Shown here piece after piece: positions 368 through 12,877 of a stretch of 64,000 bases of DNA. Below the pieces are notes generated by a model. The model was given only the letters and a program-made list of their open reading frames with translations, did no database searches and was not told the DNA's origin. Origin of the DNA: an uncultured Bifidobacterium sp. (GTDB lineage: Bacteria > Pseudomonadota > Gammaproteobacteria > Burkholderiales > Burkholderiaceae_D); assembly GCA_964515155.1 (NCBI GenBank), contig CAZESK010000002.1:10950-74949 (forward strand), in the 5' to 3' direction. A program made the translations under genes and the position numbers. Positions within the stretch are counted from its first letter, which is position 1; every line of letters begins with the position of its first letter.

Positions 368-1249
368 TCAGCGGTGCAGCCGATCACGTATCTGCACCAC
401 GCTGGCCACCTCCCCGCCAGAAGCCTCAACCAGGCGGCGCGCGTTGCGTACCTGCTCGACATTGCCGACAGGATGGCCGAATGGCACATCCTCAAGCCCG
501 ACACGCAGGTGTCCGCCGCGCCGCACAATCTCCTCGGTCAATGGCGCGACTGTCGTACCCAATCCGGCCGCCATCCACGGCGCCCCCGGATCGAGCTCGT
601 CGAGTAATGTCAGATAGGCGTCGATCGCCCAGGGTCGCGGCGGAAAGCCGAAGGAGAAACGGTCGGAGAACATCAAGCGGTATACCGGCTGCGGCACGCC
701 GTCGTAACAGCGCGCCAGCGCCGCACCCAGTCTCATGAATCCGGGCTCATAGATCGCATACGACGGCACGATGCCGTGCCGCCGGCACAGGTCCAGCCCG
801 TGGCGCACGTGGCTGTCGGGATTGGCATAAATGAAGCCCTCACGCCCCTCGGGAAGCTCGTCGAGCAGGCTGATGTTGGTCGAGCCGGGATCGACGACCG
901 ACCATTCAAGCAGGCCACTCGCGGCGAGCTTCTCGACCGCCTCGAAGCGTCGCTTGGCCGTCATGGGCTCGTTCGCATCGACATCGCCGGTAAAGGGCAG
1001 CGTGCCATAGCAGATGACATCGACACGGGTGCGGATGCGCTCAATGATGGGTGCATAGATCTCGTACGCATCGCGCTGACGCCCGGTCGTCGGATCGTAC
1101 GGATGAAAGTGGATGATGGAGGCACCTTCGCCGGCGCAGGCCACGGCCTGCTCGACAATCTCGTCGGCAGTAATTGGGATGCCCGGCTGCCGCTCGCGCG
1201 ACCAGGGGCCATTGAGCGCGGCTTCGAGCCACACGGCGTGCTTATGCAT
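368..1249 (-). CDS. beta-keto acid cleavage enzyme family protein (BKACE / DUF849, 3-keto-5-aminohexanoate cleavage-like)
   Basis: 293-aa ORF. The pattern MHKHAVWLEAALNGPW...PITADEIV...GASIIHFHPYDP is typical of BKACE. AGGAGA SD lies upstream of the ATG at 1249. Confidence 0.8.
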   Translation of the reverse strand: MHKHAVWLEAALNGPWSRERQPGIPITADEIVEQAVACAGEGASIIHFHPYDPTTGRQRDAYEIYAPIIERIRTRVDVICYGTLPFTGDVDANEPMTAKRRFEAVEKLAASGLLEWSVVDPGSTNISLLDELPEGREGFIYANPDSHVRHGLDLCRRHGIVPSYAIYEPGFMRLGAALARCYDGVPQPVYRLMFSDRFSFGFPPRPWAIDAYLTLLDELDPGAPWMAAGLGTTVAPLTEEIVRRGGHLRVGLEDVPFGHPVGNVEQVRNARRLVEASGGEVASVVQIRDRLHR

Positions 1250-1438
1250 CGGTCAGTCTCCTGCTTCCGGTTTACATTGTGCGGCCCGCAGCGGGCGGCG
1301 TTGACGTCCCGATTGTAGAGGGGAAAACACCGTCCCGGCGTTGGCAACCAAGGTAACCATGACTGCGCCTTGCTAGAATCACCACGCGATCTCGATGCGA
1401 GGAGGACAAGCCATGACGATACGGATGACGGGGGCCAG

Positions 1439-1843
1439 ATGCTGAAGACACTGATCGTCTGCCTTGCCGGATGCGGCACACCCACCTCCATCAGTGACGA
1501 GCTGGGCAAGATATCGGCCGGATACCTTCGGACCTGTCACGAATTACAAGAGCTGCGTCGCGCTTTCTGTCCCGAGTGGCCAGCCCCACCGCTGCTCCAG
1601 TGCGTCAATGATGTCGAGCGCGAATTGCCGGCACGCTACCGCGGCGAGTTTCGCCAGGGAGTGGGCGTTTTGGCACAGCGCTTCGCGTCCGAGCTGCCTT
1701 CGGCCGTGGCTGCACGCTTTGCTGCGGAAGTCAGGGCTGCAGGTGGCGAGGCCGGCCCTGCCTGCGCGGCCATGGCTGCTGACATCGACCACCAGCGGCT
1801 GCAGTTGCGTAGTCAGTTAAGGAGTTTCAGCAAGGCGAAATGA
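1439..1843 (+). CDS. hypothetical Cys-rich protein, possible lipoprotein (MLKTLIVCLAGC)
   Basis: Internal ATG of ORF 1370..1843. Short N-terminal hydrophobic stretch with an LAGC lipobox-like motif. No recognisable family. A 10-codon mini-ORF (1413..1445) with a strong GAGGAGGA SD overlaps this start. Confidence 0.35.
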   Translation: MLKTLIVCLAGCGTPTSISDELGKISAGYLRTCHELQELRRAFCPEWPAPPLLQCVNDVERELPARYRGEFRQGVGVLAQRFASELPSAVAARFAAEVRAAGGEAGPACAAMAADIDHQRLQLRSQLRSFSKAK

Positions 1844-1856
1844 AGCTCGCGTGGCA

Positions 1857-2861
1857 TCAAAGCCCGGCGAGGCGGGAAGCCAGCGCCGCCAGTGGCGCGG
1901 CCTTGCGCCCGGTTTGCACGGCGTCCGGACTGTTGGCATTGCCCTGCAGCGCACGCTCAGCAATGCCATGCAGGATCGCCGACATGCGGAACAGGTTGAA
2001 GGCGAGGTAGAAGCGCCAGGCCTCATCATCGACTGTCTGCCGCCGCTCCGCGTACCAGCGCCGGTAAAGCGCCTCATCCGGAATGCCGAGCGACATGAGA
2101 TCGAGACCGCGGATGCCGCGCCACAAGTCATGTGGTATGTGCCAGCTCATGCAGTGGTATGCGAAGTCCGACAGCGGATCGCCGAGCGTTGACAACTCCC
2201 AGTCCAGCACGGCGATCACCCGGTCCGCCACCGGATCGAAAATCAGATTGTCGAGACGGAAGTCGCCATGAATCAGCGTTGCCGGCTGGGCCGGTGGCTG
2301 GTGCTCTGGCAGCCATGCCATCAAGCGGCGCATATCGTCAGTGGGCGGCAGTGAGGACTGCTCGAGCTGTCGCGACCAGCGATCAACCTGACGGCTGATA
2401 AAGCCGTCGCGCCGACCGTAGTCGGACAGGTCCACTGCGTCGATATCGACCTCGTGCAGCGCGGCGATCACGCGGTTCATGTCGCGGTATATGGCCTCCC
2501 GCTCCGCAGACGACATACCGGGCAGGGACTGGTCGACGATGACCCGACCCTCGACATAGGACATCAGGTAGAACGGCGTGCCGATGACGTCCGTCTCATC
2601 GCACCATGCAATGCCCTCGGGCACGGGCACCGCGCTGCCATGCAGCGCGCGAATCACCCGATACTCGCGATCGATCGCGTGCGCGGACTTCAGCAATACG
2701 CCGGGCGGCTGCTTGCGCAATACCATGCGCGCCTCGCCCGTATCGAGCAGGTAGGTGGGATTCGACTGTCCACCGGCCAGTGGCTTCATCTGCAGCATGC
2801 CGCCGGCAAAGCCGCGCGCACGCAGCCAGTCATGCAGTCGGATCTTGTCTGCGTCGTTCAC
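1857..2861 (-). CDS. phosphotransferase (APH/kinase-like) family protein, LvaA / ACAD10-N-terminal type
   Basis: 334 aa. Has the kinase catalytic loop LIHGDFRLDNLIF and VLDWELSTLGDP. Its start overlaps the upstream SDR stop by 4 nt. Confidence 0.85.
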   Translation of the reverse strand: MNDADKIRLHDWLRARGFAGGMLQMKPLAGGQSNPTYLLDTGEARMVLRKQPPGVLLKSAHAIDREYRVIRALHGSAVPVPEGIAWCDETDVIGTPFYLMSYVEGRVIVDQSLPGMSSAEREAIYRDMNRVIAALHEVDIDAVDLSDYGRRDGFISRQVDRWSRQLEQSSLPPTDDMRRLMAWLPEHQPPAQPATLIHGDFRLDNLIFDPVADRVIAVLDWELSTLGDPLSDFAYHCMSWHIPHDLWRGIRGLDLMSLGIPDEALYRRWYAERRQTVDDEAWRFYLAFNLFRMSAILHGIAERALQGNANSPDAVQTGRKAAPLAALASRLAGL

Positions 2862-3624
2862 AGCGAACTCACCAAATGGCCTCGGTCGACGGCGATGCAG
2901 GCACCAGTCATGCCAGCGCCTGCGTCGGAAGCTAGCAGCAGCAGCGGACCGTCGAGATCAGACAGTTGACCGAATTCGCGGGTTGGTACGCGCTGACGTA
3001 GCCGCTGACCCGGCTCGCTATCGAGAAAATCGCGATTCAGATCGGTCACGACATAGCCGGGCAACAACGCATTGATACGGATCTTGTATCGTGCAAGCTC
3101 CAGCGCCATGACCTTCGTTGCCTGCACAACGCCGGCTTTCGAGATCGCATACGGTGCCACACCGGCAGCGACGCGTTCGCCAAGAATGGAGGCAACGTTG
3201 ACGATACTGCCCGGGCGGCCCGCATCGCGTAACTGACGCGCGGCCTCGGTAGCGACCAGCCAACAGCCCTTGAGATTGGTGTCGATTACGCTGTCCCAAT
3301 CGTCTTCGGTCTGATCAAGCAGACCGCGCGTGACCGTAATTCCCGCGTTGTTGATCACGATATCGCAGGCGCCTGCTTGCGCAAACGCATCGCGCACGCT
3401 GGCCGCCGATGCAACATCCAGCGCAACCACGTCAGCGCGCCTGCCCTGCGCCTGTAACGCATCGGCGAGGGCACGCAGCTTGTCGGTGCGGCGCGCGGCC
3501 AGCACGACCTCGGCGCCAGCATCCGACAGCAGCTGCGCGAAATGCGCGCCAAAACCGCTGGAGGCGCCAGTCACCAGCGCGCGCTTGCCGTCGAGCCTGA
3601 GCATCGTATCGGTACGACCAGTAC

Positions 3625-3628
<4 letters not shown>
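2858..3628 (-). CDS. SDR family oxidoreductase
   Basis: 256 aa. LVTGASSGFG Rossmann motif, NNAG, and a YxxxK context (YAISKAG). 4-nt overlaps with both neighbours. Confidence 0.9.
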
Positions 3629-4791
<1,163 letters not shown>

Positions 4792-4806: not shown

Positions 4807-4835
4807 AAAAAAAGCCGACCCTTCAGGGACCGGCT
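4807..4835 (-). terminator. probable intrinsic terminator downstream of the PQQ dehydrogenase gene
   Basis: On the minus strand: AGCCGGTCCCtgaaGGGTCGGCT followed by T7. The stem has one internal loop. Confidence 0.45.
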
Positions 4836-4902: not shown

Positions 4903-6654
4903 TTACTTTGCCAGCTTGAACACCAGCACCGTTCCGCCCTGCGGAACGACCGTGTTGGTGCCACGTACGTGGTCTACTGCACTGGCCAGACGCTGGGCAT
5001 CGACACCCCAGCCAGCAACCACGGTAATGTACTGCTCGCCGTCGACTTCATAGGCGGCCGGCACACCGATCACGCCGGACGGCGCGTTGAAGGACCACAG
5101 CTCCTTGCCCGTCTTCGCGTTGAACGCACGGAACTTGCGGTCCGAGGTGCCGCCTGCGAACACAAGGTTACCACCGGTGACGAAGGTCGGCGTCCAGATC
5201 TGCTCCTTGAATTTCTGCGTCCAGACTTTCTTGCCGGTCGCAGGATCCCAAGCCTGGATCTCACCGATGTGGTCCTTCGCTCCCGGGCCAAGGCGGACGT
5301 TGGTCAGGACAGCCTCGAGGGGGAAGCCGATGAACAGATCACCCGCTTTGTAGGTGGTCTCCTCGCCCTTTGGCAACGCCGAGCACATGTTTTCGTTGGC
5401 CATAGTGTAGACCAAGCCGGTCTTCGGGCTATAGGCCTCCGGCAGCCAGTCCTTGCCGCCCCAGATCGACGGGCAGAAGGCAGCACCCTGCTTCAGCGAC
5501 GGCTTCTTCGACATATCGTACTCAGGACGGCCCGTCTTCGAGTCGACCTGCTTGAACACGTCATTGCCGACATAAGGCCACGCGTTATGGAATGCCAGTG
5601 CACCCGTCTTGGTACGCTCGAGCACATAGAAGTAGCCGTTACGTGCGGCACGCACGGCCAGCGGCGTCTTCTTGCCCTTGATGTTGGCGTCGAACAGCAG
5701 CGGCGGAGTGACTTCGTCCCAGTCCCACGAATCGTTGGGCGCGTATTGCTGATAGCCCTTCAGATCGCCGGTGCTTGCGTCGATCGCCATGGTCGAGCTG
5801 GCGAACAGGTTGTCGCCCTCGCGCAGATCAGGCGTCCACGGACCCGGGTTGCCGGTACCCCAGTAGGCCGTGTTGGTTTTCGGATCGTAAGTGCCGGTGA
5901 CCCAGACCGAACCGCCGCCCGTCTTGTACGAGCCGTTGTTGGGCCAGGTATCGCCGCCCATTTCATCCGGCGCAGCGATGGTGTGGCGACGCCATGCGAG
6001 CTTGCCGGTCTCGGCATCGACACCCGCGACAAAGCCCCGGATACCGTATTCGCCGCCAGACACGCCGACCATGATCTTGCCCTTGGCCGCCAGGGGAGCC
6101 AGCGTCATGTAGTAGCCGGTCTTCCAGTTCTCGATCTGCGTCTGCCAGAGCACCTTGCCGGTCTTGGCATCGAGCGCGATCAGGAAGCAATCGGTGGTGG
6201 CCACATAGACCTTGTCACCATACAGCGCCACGCCGCGGTTGGTCGGGTGCAGCTGGAATAGTTCTGCGGGGATCTCTTTTTTATAGCGCCACAGTTCCTG
6301 GCCGGTCTTGGCGTTGAGCGCAATGACCTGGTTCTGCGGGGTCGTGACATACATGTAGCCGTCATTAACAATCGGTGGCGACTGGTGACCCTCGGTCACG
6401 CCGGTCGAGTACGACCATGCCAGCTGCAGCTTGCCGATGTTCTTGTCATTGATCTTGTCCAGCGCCGAGTAGCCCCAGCTACCGTAATTGCCGCGCCAAC
6501 TCAGCCAGTTGCGCGCTTCCGGATTCTGCAGGCGGGCATCCGTGACCGGGTTGTAGGGCATCGCCTGGCTCTTCGCAGCCGACGGGCTTTCGGCCACTGC
6601 CATCAGGGGCAGCAGGCCAAGTGCCAGTGCGAGGTACTTGGTACGCAGTCTCAT
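4903..6654 (-). CDS. PQQ-dependent dehydrogenase, methanol/ethanol family, periplasmic (atypical: no vicinal Cys-Cys)
   Basis: 583 aa with a Sec signal (MRLRTKYLALALGLLPLMAVAES). Motifs VGVSGGEYGIRG, WGTGNPGPW and PNDSWDWDEV align to the metal/PQQ site of MDH/ADH quinoproteins. GGAGGAGAG SD is present. Confidence 0.85.
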   Translation of the reverse strand: MRLRTKYLALALGLLPLMAVAESPSAAKSQAMPYNPVTDARLQNPEARNWLSWRGNYGSWGYSALDKINDKNIGKLQLAWSYSTGVTEGHQSPPIVNDGYMYVTTPQNQVIALNAKTGQELWRYKKEIPAELFQLHPTNRGVALYGDKVYVATTDCFLIALDAKTGKVLWQTQIENWKTGYYMTLAPLAAKGKIMVGVSGGEYGIRGFVAGVDAETGKLAWRRHTIAAPDEMGGDTWPNNGSYKTGGGSVWVTGTYDPKTNTAYWGTGNPGPWTPDLREGDNLFASSTMAIDASTGDLKGYQQYAPNDSWDWDEVTPPLLFDANIKGKKTPLAVRAARNGYFYVLERTKTGALAFHNAWPYVGNDVFKQVDSKTGRPEYDMSKKPSLKQGAAFCPSIWGGKDWLPEAYSPKTGLVYTMANENMCSALPKGEETTYKAGDLFIGFPLEAVLTNVRLGPGAKDHIGEIQAWDPATGKKVWTQKFKEQIWTPTFVTGGNLVFAGGTSDRKFRAFNAKTGKELWSFNAPSGVIGVPAAYEVDGEQYITVVAGWGVDAQRLASAVDHVRGTNTVVPQGGTVLVFKLAK

Positions 6655-6749
6655 TTTCTTCTCTCCTCCATCGTTAAAATTCGCCGCTGGTGGCGGCGCC
6701 TTGCAATCAGCAGCCCGTGTGGAGGCCGCTGAAATCTTCCCCCGGCCGA

Positions 6750-7301
6750 TCAGACCCCCGGCTTGTTAGAAAATCCTCCGGCGACGACCAGGAAGCCGTC
6801 CTTCTCTGCCAGCGGTACGAAGGGCAGGCTCTTGGTGGCCGGCCCCTTCGCAACGCTGCCGTCGCCAGGGTTGAATTTCGAGAAATGGCAGAAACACATC
6901 AGCAGCTTCTCCGACGCGACGAACTCGGTCACGTCACAGGCCTGGTGCGTGCAGATCGACGAATAGGCCAGTACGCCACCCACCGAGCGCTGCTTCATCT
7001 CGTCGCTCATCTCTGCCGGATCCATGCGGATCAGCAGCAGCTTGTTCAGGCGAGAGTCACTGCGCGCAGCTTTCTGGGCAAGGTCGTAGGGCCAGACAAG
7101 CACCGGCTTGCTACCCGCCTTGATATCGCCAGCCTTCAGCGGTGCGGTGGCATCGCCCTTCGCGGGCACCAACAGGTCGCCCTCGACGACACCCTGCGCC
7201 TGCTGTGCGCCGGCCGGCGCGGCCTGCAGCGCACAGCATCCGGCAACCGAGGCGCCGGTGGCCTTGAGCAGCAGGCGGCGGCGCGAATCAACTGCATCCA
7301 T
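6750..7301 (-). CDS. Tat-exported Rieske (2Fe-2S) protein
   Basis: Twin-arginine signal (SRRRLLLKATGASVAG). Rieske ligands CTH...(17 aa)...CFCH. Start set at the internal ATG (MDAVDSRRR) preceded by GAGGAGAAG; the ORF could extend to 7328. Confidence 0.8.
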   Translation of the reverse strand: MDAVDSRRRLLLKATGASVAGCCALQAAPAGAQQAQGVVEGDLLVPAKGDATAPLKAGDIKAGSKPVLVWPYDLAQKAARSDSRLNKLLLIRMDPAEMSDEMKQRSVGGVLAYSSICTHQACDVTEFVASEKLLMCFCHFSKFNPGDGSVAKGPATKSLPFVPLAEKDGFLVVAGGFSNKPGV

Positions 7302-7342
7302 GTTCTTCTCCTCTGTCATGTCATTCATTGGTTATCCGCAGA

Positions 7343-9067
7343 TCAGGACGCACGCCACGTGCGCTCGGCCTCTTCCCATGCGCCCAGCGGCTGCAGGTCG
7401 GGCACCCAAGCGAGTCCGGACTTGCCATCGGAGGACTTCGCCTCGGGAGAGACCAACACGTCGAGCAGCGCCGGCAGCTTGTCAAGCGCGCGTTCGATGG
7501 CAGGGCCCAGATCCTCGGCCCGCTCCACGCGCTCGGCATGCATGCCGAAGGCACGCGCCATCGCCGCGTAGTCCGATAACTGCAGCCGGGTCCCAACGAC
7601 CTTGCCGTGGCTGTCCTGCTGGTCATGCACCTCGATCTGCCACGCACCGTTGTTCGCCACCACGATCAGGGGCTTGGCGCCGTGCCGAACGGCCGTATCG
7701 ATCTCCATCGCATTGAAGCCAAACGCGCCATCGCCGGTGGCGACCAGCACCTGTCGCTCCGGATATGCGAGGCTGGCCGCGATGCCGAATGCGGTACCGA
7801 TACCGATGCAGCCCAGCGAACCGGGATCCAGATAAGCGGAAGAGGACAAGCCGACACGGGCGAAGCTCAGAAAATCACCACCGTCGGCGACGACCACGGC
7901 GTCCGGCGCAAGGCGCTGCTGCAGCTCATGCAGCACGCGGTTCGGATGGATGCGGCCTTCCTTGTCCGACGGCGCGGCAGCCATCGTTGAGCGCAGCTTG
8001 GTCGCGCGCTCTTCATGCTGGCGACGCAGGCTCTGTGCCCAGTCACGGTCGGTTGCGGCTTTGCGTGAGCCAGCGTGTGAGAGCATGGCGGCAATCGATG
8101 CCGCGGGTGTGGCCAGCAGCTCGGCATCACCGCGGCGGTTGTCGCGCAGCTCGGAAGCCGTGCCGGCGATACGCAAAAAGCGGGCACCCTTGAACACAGC
8201 CGGCGAGCCATAGGCCAGCTGGAAATCAAGCTTGCGGCCGATGGTGATGACGAGGTCGGCATCGCCCATCACCGAGCCACGCATCGCACCAACAAAAGAT
8301 GGGTGACTGTCGGGTACCAGGCCGCGACTCTCCCCGGTATCCAGATAGACCGCGCCGGTCGCGTCGAGCAGGCGCAGTAGTTCGGGGCCGGCTCCGCGCG
8401 CACCGCGCCCGGTAATGACAAGCGGCTTTTTCGCATTCCACAGCAGCTCGACGGCGGCGGCCACGCTGGCGGCGTCTGGTTGCGTGACGGCGACCGGCTT
8501 GGGACGAAAATGCTCGTTCAGCTGCAATACCTTCGGAATGACGCCGCGCTGGGTGTCGACCGGGAAGTCGATATAGACCGGACCCGGGTCACCGCCCTCA
8601 CCCAGCGCGCGCGCCACGGCCTCGTCGAGTTCCTGCAGCACCAGTGCAGGTTCGCGTACGGTGCGCGCATAGCGGGTGATGGGCCGGACCATGTCAATGT
8701 GCGGCATGTCCTGCAGCGCGCCACGGTTTTCCTGCGCACGCGGCGGGCCACCGGAGAGTACTAGTACCGAAGCGCGGGAAGTGTGTGCATTCGCGATGCC
8801 GGTCATCGCATTGGTCATGCCGGGACCCGCCGTGACGAGAGCCACGCCCAGGCGACCCGTCAGCTCGCTGTGCGCATGCGCCATGTAGACGGCGGCGCGC
8901 TCATCGCGTACGTCGATGATGCGGATGCCCTCAGCATCACAGCGCATCCAGATCGGCATGATGTGGCCACCGCATAGCGCGAAGATGCGGTCGACACCGC
9001 GCGCCTTCAGGAAGCGGGCGATCACGCCAGCAGCCATATCGGCATGAAGTTCAGGCGCCTGGATCAT
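7343..9067 (-). CDS. thiamine-diphosphate-dependent enzyme (acetolactate synthase / oxalyl-CoA decarboxylase / 2-hydroxyacyl-CoA lyase superfamily)
   Basis: 574 aa. N-terminal Pyr domain (VALVTAGPGMTNAMTGIANA) and ThDP-binding motif GDGAFGFNAMEIDTAVRHGAKPLIVVANNGAW. Its ATG overlaps the upstream ligase stop (ATGA). Confidence 0.85.
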   Translation of the reverse strand: MIQAPELHADMAAGVIARFLKARGVDRIFALCGGHIMPIWMRCDAEGIRIIDVRDERAAVYMAHAHSELTGRLGVALVTAGPGMTNAMTGIANAHTSRASVLVLSGGPPRAQENRGALQDMPHIDMVRPITRYARTVREPALVLQELDEAVARALGEGGDPGPVYIDFPVDTQRGVIPKVLQLNEHFRPKPVAVTQPDAASVAAAVELLWNAKKPLVITGRGARGAGPELLRLLDATGAVYLDTGESRGLVPDSHPSFVGAMRGSVMGDADLVITIGRKLDFQLAYGSPAVFKGARFLRIAGTASELRDNRRGDAELLATPAASIAAMLSHAGSRKAATDRDWAQSLRRQHEERATKLRSTMAAAPSDKEGRIHPNRVLHELQQRLAPDAVVVADGGDFLSFARVGLSSSAYLDPGSLGCIGIGTAFGIAASLAYPERQVLVATGDGAFGFNAMEIDTAVRHGAKPLIVVANNGAWQIEVHDQQDSHGKVVGTRLQLSDYAAMARAFGMHAERVERAEDLGPAIERALDKLPALLDVLVSPEAKSSDGKSGLAWVPDLQPLGAWEEAERTWRAS

Positions 9068-10740
9068 GCCGTCACCGCCACTTTCTTCTGCTTTTTCTGC
9101 GCACGCAGGTCGATCACGCCCGGTTGCGTGCGCGGGTCAACACCCGGAGGGAAGATATGGATCTTCTGCACCTTGGCCGAGGTGCCCATCGGCAGGCTAT
9201 CGACGAACAGTACCCAGCCCGGTGCCTTGAAGTAGGCCATGCGCTCGTAAGCCCAGTCGAACAGGTCCTGCGCCAGCGCGTGCTTCGCGACCTCGCTGCC
9301 GATGTCCGCATCGTCTTTCACCACAACGCAGGCCATGACTTCTTCTTCGCGCACTTCATCCGGTGCGGCCAGCACCGCGACCTGCCTGGCCTTCGGGTGT
9401 GCATTCAGGCAGGCCTCGATCTCGGCAGCGGCAATGTTTTCACCGGCGCGGCGAATGATGTTCTTCTTTCGATCCATGAAATAGAACATGCCCGACGCGT
9501 CGCGCACGGCGGCATCACCGGTGTGGAACCAGCCACCCTTCCAGGCTTCCTCAGTCGCTTCGTCGTTCTTCAGGTAGCCTGAGAAGAAACCCTTGCGCGG
9601 TGCTTCGGCGCTGTGTCGGATGACGAGTTCGCCGGGCGTATCTGCCGGCAGCTCGTTACCGTTCTCGTCGATAATCCTGGCCTCGACCCACGGATTGACG
9701 CGACCGAAGGAGCGCGTATGAACCAGCCTGGGTTCATGGTTGTCGCTGATCAGACGCCCCACTTCCGTCATCGACCACATCTCGATCACCGGGAGGTTGA
9801 ACCGCTTCTCGAAAAGCTCATGCAAGCTGGGCTCAACACCCGCGCACAGCGCAAAGCGCACCGAGTGCTGCCGCTCCTCCGGGCACTCCGGCAGCTTCAG
9901 CAAAATATTCGGGATCACACCCTGGAACTGCACGACGGTTGCGCGCGTGGCGACCAGGTCTTTCCACCAGGTGCTCGCATGGAAGCGGTCGGGGAAGATG
10001 AGGCAACCACCCGACATCAACATCGCCGGCAGCGAAATCGACAGGCAGTTTGCATGATGTAAAGGTAGCGGGTTGACCAGGCGCTCCACCCCTTCATGCA
10101 TCGTGAGCCTACCGCCGAGACCCAGATAGCAGGCACCGAAGGAGTGGAAGTATTCGTTGGTCAGGATGCAGCCCTTGGGCTTGCCGGTGGTACCCGAGGT
10201 GTAGAGCAGTGCGGCCTCGGTTTGCGCATCGGGCTGTCCTGCGCATGCAGCTGTTTTCGGCGCTGGAATACGCTCTGGAAAACGGTCGAAGGAGACACGG
10301 CTGCAGGCGCCATTGAGCATCCCGACCACGGACTCGAGATCCTCGCTTCGGGCATCGACGCCGACGATCAGTGAGGATTCCGAGTGTTCGACAACGTAGT
10401 GAATTTCTTCCCGGCGGTAGTCCGGATTGATCGGCACCACCGACACGCCAAGCGCATTGAGTGCGAAGTAGTGGAAGACAAACTCGGGACGCTGCTCGAA
10501 AAGAATGGATACGCGGTGACCGATGCCGTAGCCGGCGGCAGCGTAGATGGCGCGCAAGCGCTCGACCTCGGCCAGGGTATCGCGGTAGCTGACTTCCCAT
10601 CCGTCCGGATGGTAGGCACGACCGGCGGCCGGCGGCACGGCATAGGCCGAGTGCTCCGGATAGGTCGCGGCCGCCTTGTGCAGTGACTGGTACAGGGTAC
10701 CGTAGTGACTGGCGTCCATCTGTTGGCTTTCCTTGTTCAT
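9064..10740 (-). CDS. AMP-dependent synthetase/ligase (acyl-CoA synthetase family)
   Basis: Motifs LLYTSGTTGKPKG, GWFHTGD and a C-terminal lysine region. The 653-aa ORF was trimmed to MNKESQQMDAS because the extension overlaps the MFS gene. An alternative ATG lies at 10719. Confidence 0.85.
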   Translation of the reverse strand: MNKESQQMDASHYGTLYQSLHKAAATYPEHSAYAVPPAAGRAYHPDGWEVSYRDTLAEVERLRAIYAAAGYGIGHRVSILFEQRPEFVFHYFALNALGVSVVPINPDYRREEIHYVVEHSESSLIVGVDARSEDLESVVGMLNGACSRVSFDRFPERIPAPKTAACAGQPDAQTEAALLYTSGTTGKPKGCILTNEYFHSFGACYLGLGGRLTMHEGVERLVNPLPLHHANCLSISLPAMLMSGGCLIFPDRFHASTWWKDLVATRATVVQFQGVIPNILLKLPECPEERQHSVRFALCAGVEPSLHELFEKRFNLPVIEMWSMTEVGRLISDNHEPRLVHTRSFGRVNPWVEARIIDENGNELPADTPGELVIRHSAEAPRKGFFSGYLKNDEATEEAWKGGWFHTGDAAVRDASGMFYFMDRKKNIIRRAGENIAAAEIEACLNAHPKARQVAVLAAPDEVREEEVMACVVVKDDADIGSEVAKHALAQDLFDWAYERMAYFKAPGWVLFVDSLPMGTSAKVQKIHIFPPGVDPRTQPGVIDLRAQKKQKKVAVTA

Positions 10741-10766
10741 GATGCTTGTACTTGCGGAATGTCGTT

Positions 10767-12080
10767 CTATCGATTCACGACGTTGGCCGGCAGGCGCAGT
10801 ACCATCAGCGCGCCGATGGCCACGATGCCGGAGAAGAGGTAAAGGCTGACGTTTGGCGTACCGGTCAGATCGGTCAGCCAGCCGACCAGCGAGGTGCTGG
10901 CCATGCCAGCTACGTTGCCGAGCGAGTTCACCAGCGCGATGCCTGCAGCAGCGCCCGCACCAGTCAGGAAGGCCGGTGGCAGGGTCCAGAAAGCGGCCTG
11001 CGCAGTCGATGCACCTGCCGCGCACAGCACGAGCCCAAGCATCGCGACGGTCACGCCGATATCCGGTGTGGCGACCACGGCAAGGCCAACGGCAGTCACG
11101 AAACAGGGCACGGCGGTGTGCCAGCGGCGCTCGCCATGACGGTCGGCGCTGGCATTGCCATAGAACATGGCGATGATGGCGACGGAATAGGGAATCATCG
11201 TCAGCAAACCGATCTGCAGCGGATCGGCAAAGCCCAGCTGCTTGACCAGGGTCGGCATCCAGAAGCTGGTGATGTAAATGGCCGCGGCGATGCAGAAATA
11301 CGCCACGCCGAGCATCCAGACGCGACCGCTGCGTAATGCTCCCAGTGCGCTGGCATGCTGGGTTCCGATGCCGGCCGCAGTTTCGTTCGCGAGATCGGCG
11401 GTGATGCGTGCCTTTTCGTCGGCGCTGAGCCAGCGCGCATCCTCGACCCGGTTATCGAGGAATTTCAAGATAGCCAAGCCCAGCAGGATGGACGGTGTGG
11501 TTTCGATGATGAACAGCCACTGCCATCCGCGCAGGCCGCCGACATCGCTCATGCTGGCGAGGATCCATCCCGACAGCGGGCCGCCGATGATGTTGGACAT
11601 CGGTATTGCGGCAAGGAAGAGCGCGATGATGCGCCCGCGCCATGCAGCCGGAAACCAGTAGGTCAGGTAGAGCAGCACACCGGGAATGAAGCCGGCCTCG
11701 GCCACGCCGAGCAAAAAACGCAGCACGTAGAACTGGGTTGGCGTGGTAACGAAGGCCATCGCCCCACCGAGCAGACCCCAGGTCAGCATGATGCGCGCGA
11801 TCCAGACCTTGGCGCCGACCTTGTGCAACAGGATGTTGCTCGGCACCTCGAAGATCACGTAGCCGAGAAAGAAAATCCCTGCACCGAGGCCATAGACAGT
11901 ATTGCTCCAGCCCAGGTCGGCCAGCATATTGAGCTTGGCGAAGCCGACATTCACGCGGTCCAGATAGGCCGCGAGATAACAGATGCAGAGAAATGGAACG
12001 AGCCTGAGTGCGACCTTACGGTAAAGGGTCTGCGCGTCGAGCGACCCCGCGACCTCGATCGTCTGCGTGTTGGTTTGCAT
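10767..12080 (-). CDS. MFS transporter (anion:cation symporter-like)
   Basis: Multi-TM protein with YLDRVNVGFAKL near TM1, typical of ACS-family MFS. Start set at MQTNTQ, preceded by GGGAGA. Confidence 0.85.
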   Translation of the reverse strand: MQTNTQTIEVAGSLDAQTLYRKVALRLVPFLCICYLAAYLDRVNVGFAKLNMLADLGWSNTVYGLGAGIFFLGYVIFEVPSNILLHKVGAKVWIARIMLTWGLLGGAMAFVTTPTQFYVLRFLLGVAEAGFIPGVLLYLTYWFPAAWRGRIIALFLAAIPMSNIIGGPLSGWILASMSDVGGLRGWQWLFIIETTPSILLGLAILKFLDNRVEDARWLSADEKARITADLANETAAGIGTQHASALGALRSGRVWMLGVAYFCIAAAIYITSFWMPTLVKQLGFADPLQIGLLTMIPYSVAIIAMFYGNASADRHGERRWHTAVPCFVTAVGLAVVATPDIGVTVAMLGLVLCAAGASTAQAAFWTLPPAFLTGAGAAAGIALVNSLGNVAGMASTSLVGWLTDLTGTPNVSLYLFSGIVAIGALMVLRLPANVVNR

Positions 12081-12205: not shown

Positions 12206-12877
12206 TCAGCGGGCGACTGCCGCCTCCTGATCCAACTGGCGCAGCAACGAATCGGTTGCGTTATTCACATGGGCACGCGACAAGCGCTCGGCCTCGGCCA
12301 CATCGCCGCTCGCCACGGTACGCAGGATGGCTTCATGTTCGGCCCAGATGTCGCGCGGGGACTCACCCTGCATCAGCACCGCACCCATCACGCACCGCAG
12401 GTACGTCCAGTGCGGGGAGGCTGTCTCCGCGATCAGCGGGTTCCCCGACAGGTCGTAGAGAAAATGATGAAAGGCCATGTCGGCGGCGATCATGTCCGAG
12501 ATCGACTGCCTCGCAACAGCCTCTCTGCCGCGAAGGATGTACTCGGTGCCTTCCCGCTGCGCGCGCGGATCGGCGCGGCGTGCGGCCTTGACAACCGCGA
12601 GCGCATCCAGGCTGGCGCGAATCTCATACACATTGCGTACCTTGTGCTCTTCGAGCGGCGCGACCATCAGCCCCCGCCCCGGGGCGCTGATCAGGACACC
12701 CTCGTTGCGCAGCAGCAGGAGCGCCTGCTGCACTGGCTGACGCGAAACGCCCAGCTTCTCGGCGATTTCTTCCTGAACGAGCCGGGCATCGGGGCCGAAC
12801 TGGCCGGCCTCGATCCGCGACAAGATCGCCTCATACACCTGATCAACCAGCGAAGGCTGGGAGCGAAGGATTTCCAT
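12206..12877 (-). CDS. GntR family transcriptional regulator (FadR/FCD type)
   Basis: 223 aa. N-terminal winged HTH (LVQEEIAEKLGVSRQPVQQALLLLRNEGVL) and a helical C-terminal domain. Confidence 0.9.
   Translation of the reverse strand: MEILRSQPSLVDQVYEAILSRIEAGQFGPDARLVQEEIAEKLGVSRQPVQQALLLLRNEGVLISAPGRGLMVAPLEEHKVRNVYEIRASLDALAVVKAARRADPRAQREGTEYILRGREAVARQSISDMIAADMAFHHFLYDLSGNPLIAETASPHWTYLRCVMGAVLMQGESPRDIWAEHEAILRTVASGDVAEAERLSRAHVNNATDSLLRQLDQEAAVAR

Follow-up and report, generated by a model that had tools for sequence, protein, structure and literature searches.

The window analyzed here, that is, the whole stretch of 64,000 nt from contig CAZESK010000002.1, carries on its minus strand two neighboring genes that encode a small Rieske protein and a pyrroloquinoline quinone (PQQ)-dependent dehydrogenase. 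The upstream gene (6750..7301) codes for a Rieske [2Fe-2S] protein of 183 aa with a bc-type fold and a signal for twin-arginine translocation (Tat), an assignment based on the open reading frame (ORF), the ribosome-binding site (RBS), a match to PF00355, a profile comparison, and an AlphaFold2 (AF2) model. The downstream gene (4903..6654) codes for a dehydrogenase of the methanol/ethanol family of 583 aa, assigned by TIGR03075 and PF01011, with a Sec signal and no heme domain. The original prediction had proposed that the Rieske protein, instead of a c-type cytochrome, is the periplasmic electron-transfer partner of this dehydrogenase. Here we describe both genes and proteins, the conservation of their pairing, and the extent to which these data argue for a dedicated Rieske acceptor.

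The longest ORF of the Rieske gene spans 6750-7328, and the preferred start, as in the original prediction, is the ATG at 7301. This is almost certainly the correct start because a GAGGAG motif is located 6 nt 5' of it (7308-7313) and because close homologues also have a length of 183 aa. From the Rieske stop at 6750 to the ATG of the PQQ gene at 6654, the two genes are separated by a spacer of 95 nt on the same strand (6655..6749), exactly as originally predicted, and this spacer carries the GGAGGAG RBS of the PQQ gene. A search of the spacer for a promoter-like site between the two genes found none. A regulatory RNA or a terminator at this position was also considered and was rejected, as the predicted RNA fold is no more stable than that of shuffled sequences (z = −0.38).

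The N-terminal region of the Rieske protein, MDAVDSRRRLLLKATGASVAGCCALQAAPAGA (7206..7301, minus strand), reads as a twin-arginine signal peptide, with the twin arginines in the stretch SRRRLLLK, followed by an A-x-A motif and a probable cleavage site before QQ. A simple motif scan detected RR in 60 of the 63 distinct family members and A-x-A, 25–30 residues further on, in 59 of the 63; the scan under-counts RR, which is visible by eye in members that it missed. In the AF2 model of the Rieske protein, the signal region has low values of the per-residue confidence score pLDDT and is unstructured save for one short helix. The signal is probably cleaved, which would leave a soluble mature protein. 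Inside the signal of the window protein, we observed a lipobox-like VAGC motif (residues 19–22; 7236-7247, minus strand) that is confined to the subclade to which this protein belongs (12 of the 63 family members). Some Rieske members might be Tat-exported lipoproteins instead of soluble proteins. As a trait of the whole family, lipoprotein anchoring was rejected, given that VAGC occurs only in this subclade whereas A-x-A is general.

The cluster-binding loops CTHQAC ... CFCHFS (6885..6953, minus strand) contain the two Cys and two His ligands of the cluster plus the two Cys residues of the bc-type disulfide. In an alignment of 21 family sequences, the residues C, T, H, C, C, C, and H of CTHQAC...CFCH are invariant, and the motif aligns to CTHLGC...CPCH of the Thermus Rieske protein. 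The window protein matches PF00355, the Pfam Rieske family, with an E-value of 2e-9. A profile of the family matched the Thermus thermophilus Rieske protein (1NYK/3FOU) across the whole soluble domain with an E-value of 6e-43, and the next matches were actinobacterial QcrA and the arsenite oxidase protein AioB. The structural comparison yielded a similar picture, with the three-layer beta-sandwich known from the Rieske domains of bc1, b6f, and Thermus: residues 50–192 of the AF2 model have a pLDDT >90, the best fold match is 1NYK (TM 0.88, root-mean-square deviation 1.6 Å), and the next-best matches include AioB. The NCBIfam models for bc1, b6f, AioB, and SoxL all scored far under their cutoffs with the window protein; for instance, TIGR02694 (AioB) reached 37.7 bits at a cutoff of 95.65. 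Within the bc-type fold, the protein belongs to a subfamily without a name, and its homologues carry the database name of a bc1 subunit. A Rieske-type ferredoxin of oxygenase systems was considered and rejected because both the Tat signal and the disulfide Cys residues are present; a toluene monooxygenase ferredoxin appears among the fold matches as a distant one, at rank 35.

Two further positions bear on the redox properties of the cluster. The family keeps Ser at position H+2, after the CxCH motif, and has Phe in place of Tyr at position H+4, a combination that suggests an intermediate cluster potential. Clusters of bc-type Rieske proteins with the disulfide and the conserved Ser typically have potentials of roughly +130 to +300 mV, higher than that of the PQQ/PQQH2 couple, the reduced form of which is a quinol, at about +90 mV. 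The natural substrates of bc-type Rieske clusters are quinols, which are oxidized one electron at a time via an exposed histidine ligand.

The dehydrogenase gene starts with the ATG at 6654, ahead of which the GGAGGAG motif is located, and its product scores 562.5 bits with TIGR03075, above the cutoff of 480.05. The N-terminal region, MRLRTKYLALALGLLPLMAVA (6592..6654, minus strand), which is followed by E, reads as a plain Sec-type signal peptide without twin arginine, in agreement with the predicted Sec export. The 583-aa chain ends with the propeller and contains neither a CxxCH motif nor an extra domain, so that the enzyme is not a quinohemoprotein of type II or III. Its closest relative of solved structure is PedH (6zcv/6zcw, E-value 1e-105), and residue-level alignment to PedH allowed us to examine the active site. 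Where classical enzymes have the vicinal Cys-Cys ring (CCDxxNRG), the window enzyme has QLHPTNRG (6232..6255, minus strand): "RPCCDVINRG" of PedH aligns with "FQL-HPTNRG", including a one-residue deletion, and the ring is absent, as had been noticed originally. Not one of the 71 distinct PQQ orthologues has a Cys in this region, the residues H-P-T-N-R-G are nearly invariant, and the HPT motif is found in 119 of the 120 database homologues with at least 60% identity.

In contrast to the ring, the PQQ and metal ligands are fully retained. Glu202, Asn269, Asp311, Asp313, Arg338, and Trp251 align to PedH and are invariant in the 71 orthologues; Glu is found in the context GGE(Y/F)G, Asn in GTGNP, and Arg in ARNG, and Trp is the stacking residue. 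With all of these ligands invariant, the enzyme is expected to be redox-active. Asp311-Trp-Asp313 (5716..5724, minus strand) comprises the catalytic Asp and an extra Asp of the lanthanide type and aligns to WDFDG of PedH; the WDWDE motif is invariant in 71/71 orthologues as well as in every member of the outer clade that was checked. An extra Asp two residues past the catalytic Asp (D-x-D) marks the lanthanide-dependent enzymes XoxF, PedH, and ExaF, and the Asp-x-Asp motif suggests that the metal of the window enzyme is likewise a lanthanide. In the databases, the dehydrogenase is named "alcohol dehydrogenase (cytochrome c)".

If the two proteins function together, their genes should be associated in other genomes as well, and the lack of such conservation had been put forward as a ground for abandoning the original prediction. 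The pairing was analyzed from both sides. For the Rieske side, one genome per species was scanned, and relatives of the Rieske protein were detected in 284 species genomes, 80 of which, mostly of environmental Betaproteobacteria, were kept; together with 5 further loci, the set comprised 85 loci. An orthologous PQQ gene (52–87% identity) is located directly downstream, on the same strand, in all 83 testable loci, and the remaining two loci are contigs that end just past the Rieske gene. The test from the PQQ side used a different collection, namely metagenome contigs. Here, a Rieske gene lies directly upstream of the PQQ gene in 68 of the 74 testable loci, with gaps of about 0–200 nt. Every testable locus with at least 57% identity has the upstream Rieske gene, and the six exceptions have 54–56% identity and variant motifs such as HPHRTNRG. 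The order Rieske gene, then PQQ gene, on one strand was found in Burkholderiales, Rhodocyclales, Bradyrhizobium, Neptuniibacter, Dokdonella, and unassigned metagenome lineages. Individual look-ups revealed the same arrangement in Bradyrhizobium liaoningense, in Aromatoleum petrolei, and on two long metagenome contigs, with gaps down to 15 nt; in some loci, the genes overlap or are separated by about 5–15 nt. The locus of a Derxia lacustris protein (P0072) was also recovered by the genome scan, as L042.

The two proteins have also diverged together. The pairwise distances of the Rieske proteins and of the PQQ enzymes correlate with r = 0.83, a value that none of 999 permutations reached in a Mantel test, compared with r = 0.54 for the PQQ enzyme and the adjacent aldehyde dehydrogenase. 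Taken together, the association of the Rieske and PQQ genes is beyond chance, and the objection that the pairing might be missing from other genomes is decisively overturned.

Next to the pair, a dedicated c-type cytochrome of the cL, c550, XoxG, or PedF type was searched for, and no conserved neighboring ORF family with a CxxCH motif was found in the 85 loci. Within the 64 kb of the window, the only real CxxCH protein is a putative peroxidase-like di-heme protein of the DHOR type (PF06537; 13078..14505, plus strand), which is encoded divergently from a GntR regulator gene. It was considered as the true acceptor and rejected, being encoded on the opposite strand and absent from the conserved neighborhoods. 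The absence of a cytochrome gene of the cL/c550 type from the vicinity of the pair is thus confirmed.

What occupies the position upstream of the dehydrogenase gene in more distant relatives is informative. When cluster representatives were searched exhaustively, the PQQ relatives nearest to, but outside of, the window group were found to have 48–53% identity and to share the motifs HPT(N/S)RG and WDWDE. In a sister lineage that belongs to the same Cys-Cys-less clade, the Rieske gene is displaced by a gene for a cytochrome c protein directly upstream of the dehydrogenase gene, as observed in two loci, L088 and L089. In the former (L088:4404-5930), the protein is a secreted SGL-type propeller with a long Q/D/E-rich linker and a C-terminal cytochrome c domain, and in the latter, from a Trueperaceae genome (L089:3707-5962), it is a tri-heme cytochrome c of 751 aa with Q/G-rich spacers. 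One further protein (P0207), a chain of 1075 aa, is a fusion of a cytochrome c protein of the L088 type with the dehydrogenase. Because this slot holds either a Rieske or a cytochrome c gene beside ring-less enzymes, as would be expected of an electron-acceptor slot, the comparison argues that it is a position for the acceptor gene.

These relatives also qualify one part of the original prediction, which had tied the missing Cys-Cys ring to a different electron-transfer partner. This link is correct only in part. The ring-less clade also includes members linked to cytochrome c and members without any adjacent carrier. Therefore, the loss of the ring was rejected as a signature specific to the Rieske partnership. 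The loss of the ring is older than the association with the Rieske protein, the ring-less clade being the older and broader group.

With a probability of roughly 75%, we consider the Rieske protein to be a dedicated periplasmic acceptor for an alcohol dehydrogenase that is probably lanthanide-dependent. The different electron-transfer partner proposed originally is thus supported by the synteny, by the lack of a conserved cytochrome c gene, and by the cytochrome c proteins in the slot of the sister lineage. Several points speak against this assignment. We infer electron transfer, and its direction from the dehydrogenase to the Rieske protein, from comparative genomics and the known properties of the two families, and the cluster potential is a guess from motifs. 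The Tat signal may be cleaved, but it may also be kept as a membrane anchor or, in the subclade of the window protein, be lipidated. Furthermore, L090, L093, and 6 of the 74 metagenome loci lack an adjacent gene for either type of carrier, Rieske protein or cytochrome c, which implies that this type of enzyme can work with carriers encoded elsewhere. Finally, a fusion of a Rieske and a PQQ domain is absent among 388 PQQ homologues, and the sole carrier fusion is the single cytochrome c case described above.

The strict gene order, the very short gaps (overlapping or about 5–15 nt), and the strong co-divergence would also fit a permanent association. In that case, the Rieske protein would be a bound subunit of a heterodimeric "quino-Rieske" dehydrogenase comparable to AioAB or to the quinohemoproteins, its cluster would serve as an internal relay, and a separate soluble carrier would dock on it. 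This explanation is a variant of the dedicated acceptor and differs from it only in the stability of the complex. AioB, which is among the fold matches, is the Tat-exported Rieske subunit of a periplasmic oxidase, and in P0207 the dehydrogenase and the alternative carrier form one chain. However, the two proteins are exported by different routes, Tat and Sec, so that a complex would have to assemble in the periplasm, and a Rieske fusion comparable to that with cytochrome c was not observed among the PQQ homologues. We regard a permanently bound subunit as a realistic option, albeit one that we would not bet on.

The clade members that lack an adjacent carrier also raise the question of whether general carriers may suffice. 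A housekeeping cytochrome c would then take most of the electrons, and the Rieske protein would be an accessory factor that functions in activation, in the protection of PQQ or the metal from over-oxidation, or in redox sensing. The classical methanol dehydrogenase offers a parallel insofar as no function is known for its small subunit, MxaI. However, all ligands of the Rieske cluster are invariant, plain electron transfer is indicated by the cytochrome c proteins that occupy the corresponding slot in the sister lineage, and we know of no precedent for a Rieske protein in an activating, protective, or sensing role. An accessory function is thus improbable.

The pair could also do something besides alcohol oxidation if the propeller were an "empty" quinoprotein without PQQ chemistry. 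Indeed, the dehydrogenase has a match to TIGR04528 ("acido-empty-quinoprotein group A"), which at 386 bits remains below the cutoff of 650, and Cys-Cys-less quinoprotein homologues with the lanthanide motif have been described in marine Thaumarchaeota, their function being "completely unknown" according to a 2024 review (PMC11845868). We nevertheless judge an empty propeller to be very improbable: the TIGR03075 score is above its cutoff, every PQQ and metal ligand is invariant, a pqqA gene is located 4 kb from the pair in Bradyrhizobium, and in about 43 loci an aldehyde dehydrogenase gene lies directly downstream of the pair, which fits alcohol oxidation. Lastly, the Rieske protein could be part of a respiratory or oxidase complex that has nothing to do with the dehydrogenase and is encoded at another site, the shared operon being the only connection. 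This notion can draw on the fold of the protein, which is that of bc-complex Rieske proteins, but it is close to refuted by the adjacency in 83/83 and 68/74 loci across changing contexts, the absence of cytochrome b or other complex subunits from the gene tables of the pair-carrying contigs, the scores far under the cutoffs of the NCBIfam bc1, b6f, and AioB models, and the strong co-divergence with the dehydrogenase.

In the model that we favor, the dedicated Rieske acceptor and the dehydrogenase would together form a two-component periplasmic dehydrogenase system encoded by the two genes. The PQQ enzyme would be exported unfolded via Sec and loaded with PQQ and the metal in the periplasm, where it would oxidize an alcohol, and possibly also the resulting aldehyde, and thereby generate PQQH2. 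The Rieske protein would acquire its fold around the [2Fe-2S] cluster while still in the cytoplasm and leave via Tat, as would be expected for a protein whose cluster folding requires the cytoplasm. Cleavage of the signal at the A-x-A motif would leave a soluble bc-type Rieske domain of 150 aa, which would bind at the PQQ funnel, be it as a small subunit or in transient contacts. There, it would accept the two electrons singly, the role that cytochrome cL, c550, or XoxG has for the classical enzymes, and would pass them on to a high-potential periplasmic acceptor encoded elsewhere, for example, a c-type cytochrome or a terminal oxidase. A more far-reaching version of this model is tentative and, in our view, rather unlikely: these proteins would represent a widespread and hitherto unrecognized class of lanthanide-dependent PQQ dehydrogenases in which a soluble bc-type Rieske protein oxidizes PQQH2 directly, by histidine-mediated, proton-coupled one-electron transfer, as in the oxidation of ubiquinol at the quinol-oxidizing (Qo) site of bc1.

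The genomic surroundings of the pair in the window give some indications of its physiological role. Upstream of the Rieske gene, the minus strand carries a gene for a 2-hydroxyacyl-CoA lyase, a thiamine diphosphate enzyme (7343..9067; NF058623 equivalog, 823 bits at a cutoff of 600). The distance from its stop codon to the Rieske ATG is 41 nt, and the lyase and Rieske genes are therefore probably co-transcribed. The NCBIfam equivalog that the lyase matches is that of the actinobacterial 2-hydroxyisobutyryl-CoA lyase type; the genome itself resembles that of a Betaproteobacterium. The lyase gene overlaps by 4 nt with a gene for an acyl-CoA ligase (9064..10740), which is preceded by genes for a major facilitator superfamily (MFS) anion transporter similar to D-galactonate transporters and HpaX (10767..12080) and for the GntR/FCD regulator mentioned above, at the head of the cluster (12206..12877). 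If read as its longest ORF (9064-11025, 653 aa), the ligase gene would run about 260 nt into the MFS gene; translation probably starts at 10740 instead (MNKESQQ..., 558 aa), in which case 26 nt lie between the two genes. Just past the PQQ stop codon, there is a terminator-like hairpin with a 9-bp stem and a T7 tail (4813..4835, minus strand), where the operon appears to end. The genes for GntR, the MFS transporter, acyl-CoA ligase, 2-hydroxyacyl-CoA lyase, the Rieske protein, and the dehydrogenase are thus organized in one apparent operon, with the pair in the last position.

Under the dedicated-acceptor model, the window operon would encode a pathway in which a diol or hydroxy-aldehyde is converted to a 2-hydroxy acid in the periplasm, and the acid is imported, activated, and cleaved to formyl-CoA and a carbonyl compound. 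The first of these steps, in the periplasm, is the probable role of the window enzyme, the substrate being a guess from the operon. Past the terminator, the region 368-4791 of the minus strand harbors genes for an acyl-CoA dehydrogenase, a short-chain dehydrogenase/reductase (SDR), and an APH-type kinase, and farther on for a BKACE enzyme. The combination of kinase and acyl-CoA dehydrogenase is reminiscent of the 4-hydroxyacyl-CoA route (Lva in bacteria, ACAD10/11 in mammals), and the trio of acyl-CoA dehydrogenase, SDR, and APH-type kinase genes recurs in the related loci L008, L024, L041, L056, and L082.

Across the loci, the pair is the only constant. The surroundings vary and include lyase plus ligase genes, aldehyde dehydrogenase genes, sigma-54-dependent activators of the MimR type, GntR regulators, transporters of the TRAP and MFS types, and outer-membrane channels. 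A 2-hydroxyacyl-CoA lyase gene is located near the pair in roughly 35 of the 85 loci, and a GntR homologue is found near it in about 41 of the loci analyzed. Clearly, the module serves different pathways in other genomes. The closest relative is found in a metagenome-assembled genome (MAG) of the Burkholderiaceae (L006), the Rieske protein of which is 86% identical. In this genome, the region between the GntR and Rieske genes (L006:6565-8000) contains mere fragments of the MFS and lyase genes, whereas the pair and the downstream acyl-CoA dehydrogenase gene are intact; the fragments may reflect decay of the operon or an artifact of the assembly or MAG.

Further variation was observed on both sides of the pair. 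An outer-membrane channel gene of the Phenol_MetA_deg family (PF13557) directly follows the dehydrogenase gene in one locus (L087:9810-11204) and in 14 others, and in the former a gene for a DUF1097 protein comes next; a channel at this position hints at the uptake of a hydrophobic or unusual substrate. In Bradyrhizobium liaoningense (L086:4016-7139), pqqA and the genes of a [2Fe-2S]/molybdopterin oxidoreductase pair (Fer2 plus MoCoBD, aldehyde-oxidase-like) are located just upstream of the pair, and genes for two NIPSNAP proteins, an SDR, and an aldehyde dehydrogenase are found downstream of it.

If the acceptor function is correct, it has several consequences. With a dedicated Rieske acceptor, quinoprotein biochemistry would gain a new class of carriers, and the bc-type Rieske protein would have a second known role outside of the bc complexes, after that in arsenite oxidase. 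The current database names of the two proteins, a bc1 subunit and an alcohol dehydrogenase that uses cytochrome c, would mislead metabolic reconstructions, and the module is common, with Rieske relatives in the 284 species genomes and in many metagenome lineages. On account of the Asp-x-Asp signature, more enzymes outside of methylotrophy would become candidates for lanthanide dependence. Moreover, the clade combines one and the same ring-less active site with two kinds of carrier, Rieske protein and cytochrome c, and thereby represents a natural experiment on the purpose of the Cys-Cys ring. Direct oxidation of PQQH2, if true, would make the pair a natural model of the Qo reaction, soluble and composed of two proteins, and would add a new branch to periplasmic respiration.

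To our knowledge, every characterized PQQ-dependent alcohol or methanol dehydrogenase donates its electrons to heme, that is, to cytochrome cL, c550, XoxG, or a fused heme domain. The original statement that a PQQ-Rieske couple is undescribed remains valid, as a full-text literature search found no published example, and the papers that contain both words deal with bc1 Rieske proteins or with unrelated proteins. Among the known systems, the window pair most obviously invites comparison with PedH/ExaF and its cytochrome c550 (PedF/ExaB). Both enzymes are periplasmic and Sec-exported, have the metal site of Glu, Asn, and Asp-x-Asp as well as the PQQ residues, and are encoded near a small periplasmic acceptor. 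However, PedH has the Cys-Cys ring and donates to a c-type cytochrome, whereas the window enzyme has QLHPTNRG and the adjoining gene encodes a Tat-exported Rieske protein. Similarly, MxaFI with cytochrome cL and XoxF with XoxG belong to the TIGR03075 family and have the gene for a dedicated one-electron acceptor beside the dehydrogenase gene, but the acceptor is a heme protein, the ring is kept, and the window pair is not accompanied by a XoxJ- or MxaJ-like gene. A further comparison is offered by the cytochrome c-linked members of the same Cys-Cys-less clade (P0207, P0208/L088, and P0378/L089), which share HPT(N/S)RG, WDWDE, and 48–53% identity with the window enzyme, and which differ in having cytochrome c domains, not a Rieske protein, encoded upstream or within a fused N-terminal region.

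From the side of the Rieske protein, AioAB is similar in that it is a periplasmic oxidase from which the electrons exit via a bc-type Rieske protein with a Tat signal to a soluble cytochrome c or azurin. It differs in its catalytic partner, a molybdopterin/[3Fe-4S] protein that is co-exported with AioB, in contrast to the Sec-exported PQQ propeller of the window. The Rieske protein of Thermus (1NYK), which is the best match in both sequence and fold, and actinobacterial QcrA share the CTHxGC...CxCH motif and the disulfide, but they are membrane-anchored subunits of quinol:cytochrome c reductases that are encoded together with cytochrome b, whereas the gene of the window protein accompanies that of a PQQ dehydrogenase, and the signal peptide of this protein is probably removed. 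Quinoproteins that donate to a dedicated non-cytochrome acceptor from their own operon do exist, namely methylamine dehydrogenase with amicyanin and aromatic amine dehydrogenase with azurin; in these cases, however, the cofactor is tryptophan tryptophylquinone and the carrier a cupredoxin. A system of a PQQ dehydrogenase and its dedicated acceptor in the periplasm is thus of a known type, and what would be new in the pair described here is the class of the acceptor, a Rieske protein.

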